Shown: in pieces, positions 4,060 through 60,045 of the stretch
Layout: each line of letters starts with the position of its first letter
How positions within the stretch are numbered: the stretch's first letter is position 1
Source of the DNA: a virus
Taxonomy: Duplodnaviria; Caudoviricetes
Virus record (IMG/VR): IMGVR_UViG_2974586258_000001
Span: 58,964 to 122,963 of that record
Length of the DNA stretch: 64,000 nt
Strand: one strand, 5' to 3'
The notes under the pieces: generated by a model
Databases searched by the model: none
Seen by the model: the letters and a program-made list of their open reading frames with translations, nothing else
Told to the model about the DNA's origin: nothing
Made by a program: the position numbers and the translations under genes

Positions 4060-4440
4060 TTAACCGACTACTTTATCAGTAACTTTAATGCCTTTTGCTT
4101 CCAGTGCAGTAACACCAGCAGCATTGATAGCACCATCGCTAAATTTCAGCAGATTCTTATTCAGAGTCAGAGCACGTTTAGCAACGACCAGTTTGTACTG
4201 AGTACCAACTACAAAATCTTGTGCTTCACGAGTTACACGAGCATCGATAAGAACAGAAGCTACGTTGGCAGCATCTGCAATTGCAGCCCAAGTGCCATCA
4301 GCTTTAAGCAGAGCACCAGCAGCCATACTTGCAGCCCAAGTAACAGAAACTTCTTCTACAGAGTAACCAATGTCAGATGCTTCAACAACACCAAGAACTA
4401 GGTCAGAGTAGAACTGGGAAATAGATTCAAGACGATTCAT
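4060..4440 (-). CDS. head decoration protein
   Basis: 126 aa, Ala-rich, between scaffold and MCP, ends ALEAKGIKV. Confidence 0.7.
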   Translation of the reverse strand: MNRLESISQFYSDLVLGVVEASDIGYSVEEVSVTWAASMAAGALLKADGTWAAIADAANVASVLIDARVTREAQDFVVGTQYKLVVAKRALTLNKNLLKFSDGAINAAGVTALEAKGIKVTDKVVG

Positions 4441-4454
4441 TATTTTAACTCCGA

Positions 4455-5555
4455 TTATTTAGATTTGTTTTCAGCAGCCCATTTGGCAGCTTTAGCTTTG
4501 ATAACTTCTTGGGGGTCTTGGGCATCAACAACTACTTTGCCATCTTTACCAACTTCGGTAATAGCAAATTGTTCTTTAGTCTTATTGACCTCTTCTTTCA
4601 TTGCTTCAATTTGTTCTTTAGCAGATTTAAGAATATCTTGAATCATATCGAACTCAGCAGTCTTACGAGATTTCATCAGGAAATCAACAACTGCATCAGT
4701 CTTCTCTTCAACAACAATACCAGTAGATTTTACAAACTCAGTAAATTCGTTCTTTTGTACTTGTTCAGCAGCTTTCAGAATTTCTTCTGCTTCAGCAGCC
4801 TTGGCTTTTGCTTTTTCAAGTTCTTCTTTCAGCGGTGCTTGAGCTGCCTCAAGTTGGGCCTTCAGAATATCTTGGAACTCAGCAGATTTCATTAGTTCTT
4901 GGATATCCAATGGTTTCTCCGTTTTATCTTTAGTTTTATTAACGTTAATAGTACTATCATCAGAAACAGCAACAGGAGTTGAAGCTTTTTCCAAGGATTC
5001 TGTTACAGCTTTGAACAATTTAAGTTGTGTGTCAGCTTTATTAATAGATTTTGAAACAATTTCATATAAACCTGTTTCAAGTTTGTCTTCGGCCTCTTCA
5101 GAGAGCTTGACCTTACCCTCAACAATCATGTAATCTGTAATCTGTACAACAGGACTTGCTGTATCGCCAACCGTTACTGAACCGTCTTCTGTCATAGTGA
5201 AAGTAGTGACCATGAAATCCCAGCCTTCGCAGTAGTCGCCTGTGGTGAAATAGACTTGACCATCTTTCCAGTCTTCAACACAGAGCCACTCATCTTTACC
5301 ACAGTAAGCTTCTTTAAGTGCATTCTCCAAAAGCATTTTGGAATTACGCATACTCATTGCTTTCTGGATTTCTTCTGGGAAATTCTCGACACCAAACTTT
5401 TCAATTGATTTCATGATTTCATCAGTCAATTCAATAGTGTCAGATTTCATAAGCAAAGAGATATGGCGGTTGTTTGCACTTCCACCTTGCCCTTCATGAC
5501 AAATAGCAAGATGAGGTGTCTTTTTATCACCATCTTTTTTAATATCTAGTTTCAT
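4455..5555 (-). CDS. scaffolding protein
   Basis: Long coiled-coil acidic C-terminus; between protease and decoration genes. Confidence 0.7.
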   Translation of the reverse strand: MKLDIKKDGDKKTPHLAICHEGQGGSANNRHISLLMKSDTIELTDEIMKSIEKFGVENFPEEIQKAMSMRNSKMLLENALKEAYCGKDEWLCVEDWKDGQVYFTTGDYCEGWDFMVTTFTMTEDGSVTVGDTASPVVQITDYMIVEGKVKLSEEAEDKLETGLYEIVSKSINKADTQLKLFKAVTESLEKASTPVAVSDDSTINVNKTKDKTEKPLDIQELMKSAEFQDILKAQLEAAQAPLKEELEKAKAKAAEAEEILKAAEQVQKNEFTEFVKSTGIVVEEKTDAVVDFLMKSRKTAEFDMIQDILKSAKEQIEAMKEEVNKTKEQFAITEVGKDGKVVVDAQDPQEVIKAKAAKWAAENKSK

Positions 5556-10473: not shown

Positions 10474-10773
10474 CTTTTATGTTCGGAAAGGCTCGCTAGA
10501 CCTATCCCGCATCACTTATGTTTATCAACATTAGCTGCTGCTCTATGTCTCCATAGAAGTTCAGACTATATCATCCACAACAATATGTTGCGGCCTACCG
10601 TTTCGAACACCATTAGCTTGTGTCCTACACCGCTACATTCATCACGGCTAGTCGTTGGGCATTTAGAAACAAATGTTTCATTTAGCACAGGATTGTCCTT
10701 AACTTAATACTAGGAGTTTCCCTGTTTAGGTAGGTTTGCTACACTAATCACTTAATGTAGGGGCTACAATTTA
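10474..10773 (-). mobile_element. group I intron without ORF in terL (300 nt)
   Basis: Exon 1 ends in U with P1 GGGU/GCCC; intron ends in G; P7 elements AACGACUAG and GAUAUAGUCU; P10 UUGUA/UACAA; splicing restores HQG-LQYSFVGFDE. Confidence 0.92.
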
Positions 10774-11146
10774 ACCCTTGATGGTTGGCCTCGGCTGTAT
10801 CTTCGTGCTCTAAGTGGGTGTATTTAAGGTTCCCACCACCTGTTCCTTCGAAAATAATCTCCATGTCTTTTTCACGGATTCTCGGATTAAGTGGTCTGAA
10901 AAGTTTCTTGCTTTCTGTAAACAATCCTCCGGCACCTTTAAGGGGGCCAGTTGTTCTTCGAAACATTACACCTTCAAAATTAGGGTCTTGATATGCGTGT
11001 TTTAATGCTTTTATTAACAGAAGTCTCGACTTGCCACTACCTGCGGCACCGCCGTATATCATTACATCTACTTTTGTATCAAAAGCTTTTCGTTGTTTTC
11101 CCTCTTGAGGGGCTAAATTAACAACATTATTTTGTTTAGTTGCCAA
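10774..11146 (-). CDS. terL: terminase large subunit, exon 1
   Basis: PQEGKQ adenine-binding motif and Walker A GGAAGSGKS; spliced product is 513 aa. Confidence 0.9.
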
Positions 11147-15441: not shown

Positions 15442-15478
15442 AAAATAAAAGCCCCGAATCACGAGGAAACGAGGCTTG
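15442..15478 (-). terminator. intrinsic terminator after tRNA
   Basis: AAGCCTCG...CGGGGCTT followed by TTATTTTT. Confidence 0.7.
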
Positions 15479-15494: not shown

Positions 15495-15584
15495 TGGTAG
15501 CCCTGTTCGGTAACGATCCGAAGTAACCCACTTATCTGGTGTACGAGTTTATAAATCTCGGTACTTTCCTTAAGCTACAGGGCC
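15495..15584 (-). tRNA. atypical tRNA with UAU anticodon (Ile) and long variable arm
   Basis: Acceptor GGCCCUG/CAGGGCU + ACCA, D stem GCUU/AAGU, anticodon loop UUUAUAA, T stem UUCGG/CCGAA. Confidence 0.75.
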
Positions 15585-15599
15585 ATTAAATTAATATAA

Positions 15600-15920
15600 A
15601 AACAAAGGATGGTAGGCCATCACCCCGCAACAAAGACAGGAATCAAAAGATTATGTGTCTACGCCCTAGTTGTGTTATATCCGCATGATTTCTCAGAGGG
15701 AGATATAACAAATGATAATAATTCACTTAGACGGATCACTCTTCCTTGTCTCTTGGCTTTCAGTGATCGATTAAAGAGACAGCAGTCTACATTTTATGCC
15801 GATAATAGATATGCAACCTTTCTTTATTCTTGTAAGGCTCAAGTTTACCAGTCTCTCTTTTATCTTGCAGAGACCAACAAGAACCTATTCTTAGCAAGGT
15901 CATAGGATTTTAAAACCTAT
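15600..15920 (-). ncRNA. putative structured ncRNA with several pseudoknots
   Basis: Many 5-9 bp helices with G-U pairs favouring the minus strand; own promoter; no credible ORF. Confidence 0.65.
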
Positions 15921-15926
15921 ATGTTT

Positions 15927-15955
15927 ATATTATCAAAATTATCTTGAAATTTCAA
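15927..15955 (-). promoter_or_regulatory. sigma70-like promoter for ncRNA/tRNA
   Basis: TTGAAA-17 nt-TAATAT; palindrome CTTGAAATTTCAAG overlaps the -35. Confidence 0.65.
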
Positions 15956-18112: not shown

Positions 18113-18385
18113 TTATTCCTCCACAAAACCACAAACTGTAACAGTTCCTTCTGGAACCTCTGTCAAACCATCATCAACTTGAAACCAAACAAGATTGTCT
18201 GAGTATATTAACTCATCAACTTTTTCTTTAAACTTTGTTGCACTTAATCCAAGAACAATAATCATATCTTCTTGTGGAATAGATTCGGTCATTCTACCAA
18301 ATTCTTTGCTAATATGTGCAACTTGAGCTGCAAGTTTACCTTCTGACATTTTCAAATTCTTGTTGTAGTAAATTTTAAATTTCAC
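18113..18385 (-). CDS. peptidyl-tRNA hydrolase Pth2-like
   Basis: KMSEGKLAAQVAH and D.GLTEV..GTVTV.G are PTH2-family motifs. Confidence 0.8.
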   Translation of the reverse strand: MKFKIYYNKNLKMSEGKLAAQVAHISKEFGRMTESIPQEDMIIVLGLSATKFKEKVDELIYSDNLVWFQVDDGLTEVPEGTVTVCGFVEE

Positions 18386-24064: not shown

Positions 24065-24139
24065 TGGTTCGAGTGTGGTGAATCGAACACCAGAATTTTC
24101 CGCCCCAAACGGAACGACATACCACTTGCCTACACTCGG
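24065..24139 (-). tRNA. tRNA-Pro(UGG)
   Basis: Cloverleaf with anticodon loop UUUGGGG, T loop UUCGAUU and encoded CCA; C1:A72 mismatch. Confidence 0.9.
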
Positions 24140-24206
24140 AATATTTTTGCTAATCTATAAACAATATTAACATGGAAATTATAAAATGTCAAGGTAGTTT
24201 ATAAAA

Positions 24207-58077: not shown

Positions 58078-60045
58078 ATGAATCTATTTAAAAACGATGG
58101 TCAAATCAATTATGAAGATTTGGGAGATATTATATGGACATTAAGAAACCACAGCATCAATAAACGACCACCAAACGATAACATTCCGAATCACATGATG
58201 GTGGCTCATGAAAGGCACCTTGCCTTGCTTAAACAAGCTATTGAAATGATACGTTTTGATTATCAGAGAGAAAGTTATTTGTGGTACAAACTAAATAGAG
58301 AAGAAAATAGAAATGACAAACTAGAAGAAATAATTAAAGACCTAACCGAGGACAAAGACAAACTTAAATCAGAAGTTAAGACACTAAAAGAAAAGATTCA
58401 AGAAGCACAAGTAACAGCAGGATTGTTTATTCAGAGTGTCAAAGATAAACTACCAAGTTGGTTTAGTAAGGAGAAATAGTATGAGTTGGAATTGGTATGT
58501 TAATAGAGATACCATCAAAATTAAAGTAGAAGAACGCTCTTGGGAACAACCAGAAGAAGTATATAACGAAGATGTTGACAATTATGAAGAAACAGATAAT
58601 AATGTAACAAAGTATGATATTGAGTGCAAAGTTGAAATTAACGGAAAAGAGATTAAGCACTATACTAAATTGTCTGCTTTTCTTCGTGAGTTTGTAAATA
58701 AAAGTGTTGTATCAAACTATGCTGATTGGTATGGCGAAAGCTATAAAGATACAGGAATAAAGTATATTGCAATCACAAAATCTTGGCATTATAACCTAAC
58801 AGATTTCTACCCATTTACCTGCTCTTGCGGTGTTGCAGGATGTTCTTCAATCTGGGACGGTATCCATGTCAAATGGCGTAAGAACAGTATCGAGTGGAGG
58901 ATCAAAGATAAGCGTGATGGATATGAAAAGATTCTAGATAAAATGTTTTATTCTTTTGATCGAGAACAATATGAACAAGAAGTCTTGACAGCATACCAAA
59001 CATTGTATAAACTTGTTGAAAATAATCCAGAAAACGAAAGTGCTTGGATTGTTGAGGAGTTTAAAAGTAAGATTTAAGGAGGAATAATGATGAATTTTGT
59101 AGTTTGGTTAATTTTATGTATTGGGCTTTATATTCTGCCCGCAGGTATAGGTGCTTTTATTAATCTAGATTGGTCATATTTAGATTTTACAACATGGTCT
59201 ATTGAAGCGCGTGTCATATACATTGCTGTGGTTATTGGCTGCACAGTAATATGTGCAACTGATGGAGTGTAAACACAATGACAAAACATTATAATCCTAA
59301 TGACTACTGTTTCCTCTGCCAAACAGATGAAGGTTATGTCTTGGCACACAATGAAGTTTCTGATATAATTACTAGTGTCCAGAATCCAGATAAAGTTCTT
59401 GGGTATACAAAAGATTTCAACGAGATTTGCAAACTGTTTACTGAATGTCTTGACATCAAAATCAAAGGCTACTATAATGTAGGAGACAAGGTTAGTTATG
59501 GTAATTGTCAATATTTTGTTCTTGAAGTTGGGCAAAATGCTGAAGGTAATTTGCAAGAGTTAATTGTCGGTCGATAAATAAAGGAGGAAAATGATATGCA
59601 AACAAGTATGAGTTGTGTTAAGATTAATACACTTATGGACACACAATTGGTATATCCGGAAGTCATTCGTGAACATCTTGAAAGACTTTATGAAGTAGCT
59701 AAGAGTAACTATGTTTACAAGAACCGAAAGAAGTTCAATTTTATGAAATTTGGGTATGATTCAGAAAAAGTCTTGAAACAACAGTTTGAATCTATCTTCA
59801 AAGATTATCGTGAACTTCATAAGGACATTGATTCACTAAAACATTTGCATTGTCTTGAGCCATGGCAGGTGTCAGAAATGAAACGACTAATGAAAATCTA
59901 CAATTGCCTTGTTGCATTACAGAAAATTATCCGGTTGTACTTGTTCTCTGATAATCCGGTACAAGTAGATTACAATACTGTGTCTTGGTTAAACTTCTTT
60001 TATAAAAACGAAGGAGAGATTCGTAGTTATATCAAGAATGTTTAA
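58078..60045 (+). other. cluster of hypothetical genes
   Basis: ORFs 58078-58479, 58436-59077, 59087-59272, 59278-59577, 59596-60045 behind a TTGACA promoter at about 58019. Confidence 0.6.

Follow-up and report, generated by a model that had tools for sequence, protein, structure and literature searches.

Two supported pseudoknots in a modular, non-coding minus-strand locus ahead of a phage tRNA

Phage T4 makes two small stable RNAs, RNAC and RNAD, from its tRNA region, and their role is given as unknown in the parts of the sources consulted (PMC3014915, PMC9697503). GOLLD and ROOL, as portrayed in the consulted part of their source, are structured pseudoknot RNAs that are often located near tRNAs and in prophages and are possibly co-transcribed (PMC5737381). 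Here, we examined positions 15,600 to 15,920 of a 64,000-nucleotide (nt) stretch of viral DNA (hereafter the window; positions 58,964 to 122,963 of IMG/VR virus record IMGVR_UViG_2974586258_000001), which a preliminary description made from the letters alone had taken for a single new multi-pseudoknot RNA of about 320 nt. The locus is non-coding, of minus sense and modular, lies behind a promoter of a class enriched in the window, and carries two supported pseudoknots, one of them within a conserved core of 27 nt. All coordinates in the locus refer to the RNA read on the minus strand.

As far as the consulted descriptions go, the T4 RNAs are small phage RNAs transcribed from a tRNA region, as the RNAs predicted here would be, a likeness by description only. 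The T4 RNAs are classed as late in the part of the source used (PMC9697503), whereas the promoter here is of host type and the core is shared with temperate phages that have no tRNA arrays. According to the source given above for them, ROOL averages 581 nt, and both GOLLD and ROOL are far larger than this locus, which is modular and has a conserved part of 27 nt (PMC5737381). Models of both families are in Rfam, and neither matched at E<=10.

These RNAs are the nearest in kind; two other systems offer analogies of function and of structure. HK022 put and lambda nut are short structured RNA hairpins near the start of early transcripts, which act in cis with host machinery for terminator read-through and occur as left-right pairs. 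The 27-nt core is like them in its position between cI and recombination genes in both prophage loci (2/2) and unlike them in being a pseudoknot rather than a hairpin, with one copy per 20-kb prophage locus. Minimal H-type pseudoknot aptamers of the preQ1-I type comprise about 30 nt: a hairpin followed by an A-rich tail, with the 3' end paired to the loop of the hairpin. The core has the same size and design, yet it has no Rfam match, no link to metabolic genes and no coupled platform.

Comparison with relatives shows that the region is a chain of separable RNA modules, not a single conserved 320-nt RNA. Module A spans 15920-15730 overall and module B 15729-15585, with the following parts.

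15850-15920, minus strand: 5' hairpin domain of module A, with hairpin GACCU/AGGUU at 15901-15897/15886-15882 or alternatively CCUAU/AUAGG at 15906-02/15888-84, plus GGUCUCU/AGAGACU at 15875-69/15856-50.

15817-15843, minus strand: conserved 27-nt H-type pseudoknot core, supported by covariation in alignment A7.

15730-15812, minus strand: putative replaceable central cassette of about 85 nt, with a small hairpin, UAGAC (15789-85) and an H-type pseudoknot, supported by shuffles and a compensatory change.

15729-15730, minus strand: deletion junction, where relatives carry about 65 nt (alignments A1 and A3).

15585-15729, minus strand: module B, containing hairpin 15710-02/15681-73, one further hairpin in the middle and, ahead of a U-run, a terminator-like hairpin at 15621-15608.

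The core (15843-15817) reads CUUGAGCCUUNCAAG-N-AUAAAGAAAGG. Its first stem (S1), (N)CUUG/CAAG(N), pairs 15843-40 with 15832-29 and closes the hairpin loop A-GCCUU-R, and its second (S2), GCCUU/AAGGY, is represented here by GCCUU/AAGGU (15838-34/15820-16), plus 15839/15815 in the window. By design, the 3' end of an A-rich tail folds back to pair with the loop of a hairpin; the A-rich loop is AAUAAAGA in the window and NAUAAAGA in motif form, and the loop residues are invariant. The preliminary description had drawn S2 as 15839-34/15820-15, crossing a helix 15883-15877/15833-15827, and both of its helices are present. In alignment A7, which comprises 56 distinct sequences and leaves out phiA047 and PhAER-3/4, 97.9% of 560 cells pair, against 32-50.5% in slid controls. 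Three pairs change on both sides: column 6-22 (GC 20, AU 17, GU 9, CG 2, other 8), column 7-21 (CG 53, GC 2, AU 1) and column 12-34 (GC 45, GU 8, AU 1, other 2). The covariation score was reached by 0/500 shuffles, a count that is not a probability since the sequences are related, and the 18 G-U cells are mismatches on the opposite strand. With its crossing helices kept by covariation, the core belongs to the H-type pseudoknot class.

The distribution of the core points to an almost invariant element common to lytic Aeromonas phages (four groups) and temperate Pasteurellaceae phages. Searching module A in 401 sampled genomes of one order returned only matches of 20-50 nt, one class of which clustered on the 27-mer, the remainder being AT-rich chance matches. 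The motif CTTGARCCTTNCAAGNATAAAGAAAGG, with at most two mismatches, occurs at 29 places in 23 of 151 genomes of one bacterial family (genomes of roughly 2 Mb), and its reversed control gave 0 matches in the same genomes. The core is also found in Aaphi23 and S1249 of Aggregatibacter, in the Aeromonas phages AhSzw-1 (Shenzhenvirus, Demerecviridae), 4_4572, LAh_6/8/9 (Lahexavirus) and phage 1233, and in at least 55 IMG/VR contigs; at least 83 instances, with at least 59 distinct 50-nt cores, were collected. A covariance model of full-length module A (R1) found nothing in AhSzw-1, Lahexavirus, phage 1233 or Aaphi23, and the core alone is common to all of them.

By these searches the core appears to match no RNA family described in Rfam or the literature searched. 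At the gathering threshold, Rfam 15 matched only a group I intron elsewhere in the window. At E<=10, the segment 15350-16050 gave the tRNA and CRISPR-DR34, a model of a clustered regularly interspaced short palindromic repeat, at 18.4 bits (gathering score 35, E 1.2). The loci of six relatives gave tRNAs and sub-threshold matches only, and three bacterial loci together with the Aaphi23 core gave nothing relevant. The novelty expected at the outset withstood the Rfam comparison, no family matching the region. The absence of transfer-messenger RNA and small-ribozyme features noted then likewise agrees with ARAGORN, which finds only two tRNAs in the window, and with the lack of a matching Rfam model. 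Neither the core sequence nor the element was met in the searched literature, which did not include supplements. A separate idea, that the hairpin at 15709-15674 mimics a CRISPR repeat or acts as an RNA anti-CRISPR, was rejected: 32 genome and 7 viral stretches each gave a single match, none was labelled Aeromonas, and there was no array.

The other supported pseudoknot lies in the central cassette. The crossing helices of 8 and 7 base pairs (bp) claimed earlier are present and entirely Watson-Crick, with S1 at 15781-15774/15754-15747 and S2 at 15768-15762/15740-15734. Crossing Watson-Crick helices of these lengths were reached by 41/500 shuffles of the whole 341-nt region (466/500 if G-U pairs are allowed), so the single-sequence observation is not above chance and the evidence must come from relatives. 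Within its own domain of 64-75 nt, the summed helix energy beat the local shuffles (0/300 matched it), and one U-A pair of the 8-bp helix is C-G in phiA009 and L005, a change on both sides. On the strength of the shuffles and this one compensatory pair, the cassette pseudoknot also belongs to the H-type class. In phiA047 and PhAER-3/4, 85-93 nt between conserved flanks (101/106 and 28/32 identical) are replaced; the replaced middle resembles the present cassette no better than do 178/500 shuffles, and the replacement holds two crossing helices at the same place (5/300 shuffles each). Because the model-based alignment put the second cassette helix one base out of register, the cassettes were compared by shuffle tests and no joint pair count was made. 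We read 15812-15730 as a replaceable pseudoknot cassette; in other phages an unrelated sequence of like topology takes its place.

Only eight records, all of Aeromonas phages, matched the 601 bases around the region (85-94% identity). Six were opened, namely phiA009, TS9, phiA047 and PAc (Plateaulakevirus) and PhAER-3/4 (unclassified), and the source of the window, a 122,963-bp virus record with terminal repeats, is an Aeromonas Plateaulakevirus-like phage. The modules are parted, lost or recombined among the relatives. In phiA009, TS9 and phiA047, about 65 nt or more separate module A from module B, and in TS9 a different tRNA follows module B. L005/L017 have module A with the second pseudoknot described below and neither module B nor the tRNA. 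In PAc and L013, module A stops after its first ~75 nt and other tRNAs follow, and PhAER-3/4 are without the inner hairpin of module A. Module B occurs in five phage records at 92-97% identity and is absent from L005/L017, PAc, L013 and PhAER-3/4. The modules are 90-98% identical to their relatives, compared with 87-92% for flanking genes that align in full; the upstream flanking gene aligns only partly in phiA009 and PAc.

The stretch of about 65 nt in the relatives includes an AU-rich spacer and a second pseudoknot of compact form (CAGG-A-GCCUG-N-CCUG-NNAA-CAGGC). Shuffle tests of this pseudoknot gave 0/500, 0/500, 2/500 and 7/500, and its pattern occurs in 4/5 records searched and nowhere in the genome of the present phage. 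Since the stretch is missing here, the 320-nt unit is a fusion seen in this genome alone. R1 gave a single match in every one of five related phage records searched, and no module paralogues were found inside five phage genomes. Exact-pattern scans of IMG/VR and metagenomes for relatives of whole modules yielded only L005, L013 and L017 plus chance matches. Synteny through the upstream protein gave seven loci, none with the module; the best R1 match among them, 16.7 bits (E 0.0039) on L058, is by eye mainly a terminator hairpin.

Two further arrangements were seen among the relatives. In PhAER-3/4 (L007 1638-1709 and 1998-2237; L008 likewise), a 23-codon open reading frame (ORF) lies between the shared promoter and module A, and an ORF of 79 amino acids (aa) follows the module, ahead of two tRNAs, so that the RNA module would there be embedded in an mRNA. 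L005/L017 (L005 ~4400-4480, minus strand) and L013 (~1250-1330) share another non-coding module (..AACUCAACAUACU.UCUAAGCCUCUAUUUAUAAGCUCAAAUUAGGUAG..) just before the common terminator, which in L013 gave a sub-threshold match to the abiF RNA (25.4 bits, E 1.1).

The 5' domain fits one model in alignment A6 at 136/136 paired cells over seven sequences, a score reached by 17/500 shuffles, with one compensatory pair change (C-G in four sequences, U-A in three) and two wobble changes. A competing 5' hairpin, GAACCU/AGGUUC, also fits the data, and a GAACC..GGUUC hairpin recurs in AhSzw-1; the choice between the two hairpin models is not settled. Module B folds with a z-score of -2.23 (4/200 shuffles as stable), the plus strand also giving -2.01, and hardly varies among the five records that have it. 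Its hairpin 15710-15702/15681-15673, claimed before, is present with 9-10 bp. The terminator-like hairpin at 15621-15608 is weak, with a stem of only five Watson-Crick pairs.

The remaining claims of the preliminary description fared unevenly. A helix said to enclose the cassette pseudoknot (15789-85/15732-28) is perfect only in the window, because it lies on the deletion junction; relatives are mismatched or have no partner. The proposed pairing of loop CCCU with 15667-64 does not survive in phiA047, which has CCAU and an unchanged partner. Among the hairpins placed at both ends, the 5'-terminal one (15920-16/15906-02) is not kept in phiA009, phiA047, L005 or PhAER-4, whereas the other helices listed mostly exist. 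Covariation among homologs, the check it had called for, supports the core and amounts to one compensatory pair each in the cassette and in one model of the 5' domain. The 320-nt unit is not conserved.

The RNA is of minus sense. All wobble variants among relatives are compatible with the minus sense only, in keeping with the earlier remark that G-U pairs favour that strand. The minimum free energy of the 341 nt is -78.0 kcal/mol on the minus strand (z -0.73; 22/100 shuffles fold equally well) versus -68.7 kcal/mol on the plus strand (z -0.54), and the z-score of the 5' domain is -1.74 versus -0.47. Comparison of the relatives revealed no conserved ORF in the region on either strand, and indels disrupt its reading frames; the region is therefore non-coding. 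The promoter reported directly upstream was confirmed, with the addition of a TG extension, as was the position ahead of a tRNA on the same strand. The predicted signals around the modules are as follows.

15927-15955, minus strand: sigma-70-type promoter TTGAAA-17-TAATAT with TG extended -10, from a consensus scan; predicted start near 15920.

15495-15584, minus strand: tRNA with anticodon UAU, a long variable arm and encoded CCA, from ARAGORN; Rfam tRNA 34.9 bits.

15443-15466, minus strand: intrinsic terminator closing the unit (hairpin 15466-15452), from a terminator scan; kept in all relatives.

The promoter is kept in relatives, phiA009 having TTGACT-17-TAAGAT with TG. Its class, TTGA-N15-17-TGNTAWNAT, has 10 copies in the window against 0.91 expected, a number reached by 0/100 shuffles; 7/10 are on the minus strand, and the copies span 2554-25625 (minus) and 32685-57009 (plus). 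One copy, at 24164-24192, lies directly ahead of the other tRNA, tRNA-Pro (24065-24139). No internal promoter was found ahead of module B in relatives, the best site being a 9/12 match and the number of sites not above that in shuffles.

The tRNA itself is unusual, with an A.A mismatch closing the anticodon stem, the T-loop AUCGUUA, G1-U72 and discriminator A. Relatives carry an 84-nt tRNA with anticodon UGU that is also long-armed (L003 1780-1863; L004 1606-1689). Long variable arms normally mark Leu, Ser and Tyr tRNAs, which makes the amino acid of these UAU and UGU tRNAs ambiguous.

The surroundings of the core vary widely. A perfect-stem terminator follows the core by no more than 250 nt (median 49 nt) in 21 of 70 distinct contexts, and a tRNA on the same strand follows within 1 kb in 8 of the 70. 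Immediately past the core, nearly all contexts differ in sequence; the spacing to the terminator varies freely, and the nearby genes differ widely (Cas2-like small proteins, a protein kinase, unknowns). AhSzw-1 has the core embedded among 14 arrayed tRNA genes. Both annotated bacterial loci (2/2) place it within a lambdoid prophage, where it stands at the head of the early-left side, preceded by cI plus two or three ORFs, beside a divergent small gene and before recombination genes. The prophage loci and the present phage share no proteins, and no N-like protein was seen in the PHROG annotation of the two prophage loci.

Several smaller features accompany the core. Pairs of 10-nt direct repeats of at least three sequence types, such as TGTAGTCGCA and TTGTGAGAGA, bracket TATATT 30-90 nt upstream of it (L084-L099); they were ruled out as CI operators, since neither L102 nor L103 has them between cI and cro. 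Divergent to the core, 88-aa proteins match Cas2 (PF09827) in L090 (1165-1431, minus strand) and L091 (1596-1862, plus strand), at 30.6 bits, and 23.6 against a cut-off of 23.8, with no CRISPR array in view beside them. Some prophages have a same-strand tRNA 200-700 nt after the core, tRNA-Lys(UUU) in L085 (1755-1831) and tRNA-Arg(UCU) in L094 (1246-1322), and L144 and L153 have tRNA-Arg downstream. Just upstream of the core in the AhSzw-1 array (L104 903-976), ARAGORN calls a tRNA-like gene with the two-base anticodon 'ca'. In phage 1233 (L107 ~1235-1345), a core with a covarying G-C stem pair is followed by a stretch like a tRNA T-arm (GGTTCGAGTCC), where ARAGORN calls no tRNA; this core lies ~250 nt after nadR-like and pnuC-like genes.

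For the core, we favour a role in cis, in read-through or stability. We are evenly poised on the fuller reading, in which the locus would be the untranslated body of a short minus-strand early transcription unit and the core a cis-acting handle for a host factor. The unit would run from the promoter at 15955-15927, with its start near 15920, through the weak terminator-like hairpin (15621-15608) and the tRNA (15584-15495) to the terminator at 15466-15452, a deletion of ~65 nt having fused module A to module B in this phage. The factor might be RNA polymerase, the termination machinery or the decay machinery. With such a handle, untranslated cargo (tRNAs, small RNAs) could be expressed from the early promoters of phages through terminator read-through or stabilisation, in the manner of put and nut, and the other modules may be cargo that is cut out by the processing that releases the tRNAs. 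No phage protein travels with the core, and any partner should therefore come from the host. The positions of the core ahead of terminators, small non-coding stretches and tRNAs suggest that it serves untranslated early transcripts. As to a layout of the put/nut type, terminators are downstream in the 21 contexts above, and a promoter is predicted in this phage and phiA009 and not in Aaphi23.

A number of observations weigh against this cis-acting host-factor reading. At the sensitivity used, the core was found in none of 5,426 complete E. coli genomes and in no PLSDB plasmid, which fits a narrow partner better than a universal one. No sigma-70 promoter was called upstream of the core in Aaphi23 by the consensus scan, the core of AhSzw-1 sits mid-array with no obvious promoter adjacent, and the -10-like hexamer found at -50 to -15 in 52/70 distinct contexts is a count without a control. 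Each of the two 20-kb prophage loci has one exact copy of the core, whereas put and nut come as left-right pairs; paired copies were found neither there nor in the five phage records with R1. By eye, phiA047 and PhAER-3/4 each have one mismatch at the end of S2, and module A, being truncated in PAc and L013, is dispensable in those phages. Public sequencing runs do not help either. Parts of the stretch were held by 20/24 of the runs listed, and contigs from three wastewater metatranscriptomes and one RNA-Seq-labelled run span the region and both flanks without giving transcript ends, and are thus uninformative on transcription; several of them skip 15584-15816, as PAc-like variants do.

A bolder form of the cis-acting reading, which we entertain tentatively and consider unlikely, is that the core is a new RNA element that, on its own or with a host factor, makes RNA polymerase ignore terminators or Rho or shields RNA from decay. 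Lytic and temperate phages of Aeromonas and Pasteurellaceae would set it at the start of untranslated units, and the locus would serve as a bay into which tRNAs and exchangeable pseudoknot RNAs are plugged for expression.

A comparably doubtful alternative is that the locus yields trans-acting small RNAs, with modules A and B as the products, the core as a protein-binding scaffold at the 5' end (for Hfq, ProQ or similar) and specificity in the variable 3' part. The 21 contexts in which an intrinsic terminator follows the core within 250 nt have the layout of short-RNA genes, and module B closes with a terminator-like hairpin and its U-run; in the window, such a layout amounts to a predicted promoter plus the weak terminator-like site at 15621-15608. 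Small RNAs, however, usually conserve their seed and not their scaffold. A binding site might be offered by the purine-rich AAUAAAGAAAGG tract, yet this tract is taken up in S2 and the pseudoknot loop. A ProQ-like RNA chaperone lies ~1.2 kb upstream of the core in LAh_6, a link to ProQ that depends on the depositors' label alone.

Could the pseudoknot RNAs instead be decoys that bind and neutralise a host RNA-binding defence protein, the swapping of cassettes reflecting an arms race? We consider this quite improbable. It would account for the accessory character of module A, lost or truncated in PAc and L013, and for a cassette swapped for unrelated sequence with the same fold. Early expression would fit as well, as would the variable cargo of the prophage loci that carry the core (protein kinase, Cas2-like small proteins, tRNA-Lys or tRNA-Arg). 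Nonetheless, there is no similarity to a known RNA antitoxin or repeat, the abiF match is sub-threshold and in another module, the CRISPR-repeat idea failed, and an invariant core argues against an arms race at the core itself.

Less probable still is a small-molecule aptamer, in which metabolite binding by the 27-nt pseudoknot would govern the terminator downstream, as in the smallest riboswitch pseudoknots. The hairpin, the A-rich tail pairing with its loop, the invariant loop residues and the nearby terminators (21/70) speak for it. No riboswitch family matched at E<=10, however, distance and sequence up to the terminator vary so freely that no coupled expression platform is apparent, and the cargo fits no one pathway.

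The original view of one 320-nt multi-pseudoknot RNA folded as a single unit now seems highly improbable. The promoter (15955-15927) and the terminator-like site (15621-15608) do bracket ~320 nt here, yet the whole-region z-score of -0.73 is unremarkable, the two halves lie apart in phiA009, TS9 and phiA047 and occur alone, truncated or with swapped parts in other relatives, and the fusion is specific to this genome. A recombination scar or linker, with the core as a DNA-level junction for module shuffling and the rest as drifting spacer, would suit the divergence right after the core and the mosaic locus and is just as improbable, given covariation with one-strand wobble pairs, which points to selection on RNA, and modules at least as conserved as the neighbouring genes.

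T4 RNAC and RNAD, GOLLD and ROOL have resisted functional explanation, and a small covarying core that is easy to mutate makes the question testable. Many natural contexts are available (lytic and temperate; with and without tRNAs and terminators), together with natural deletion and swap variants, and the tests can be made in culturable phages: Aeromonas TS9 and phiA009 and Aggregatibacter Aaphi23. For annotators, the locus is a caution that large gaps in these phage genomes are not empty.

The neighbouring genes are on the minus strand, small and mostly unnamed, and the gene downstream of the region has weak matches to Rz-like spanins. About 2.5 kb upstream of the tRNA unit, a 90-aa protein (18113-18385, minus strand) matches peptidyl-tRNA hydrolase PTH2 (PF01981, 30.7 bits, cut-off 23). 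The group I intron, the sole gathering-level Rfam match in the window, is at 10541-10783 (minus strand) and matches the full-length Intron_gpI model at 85.3 bits.

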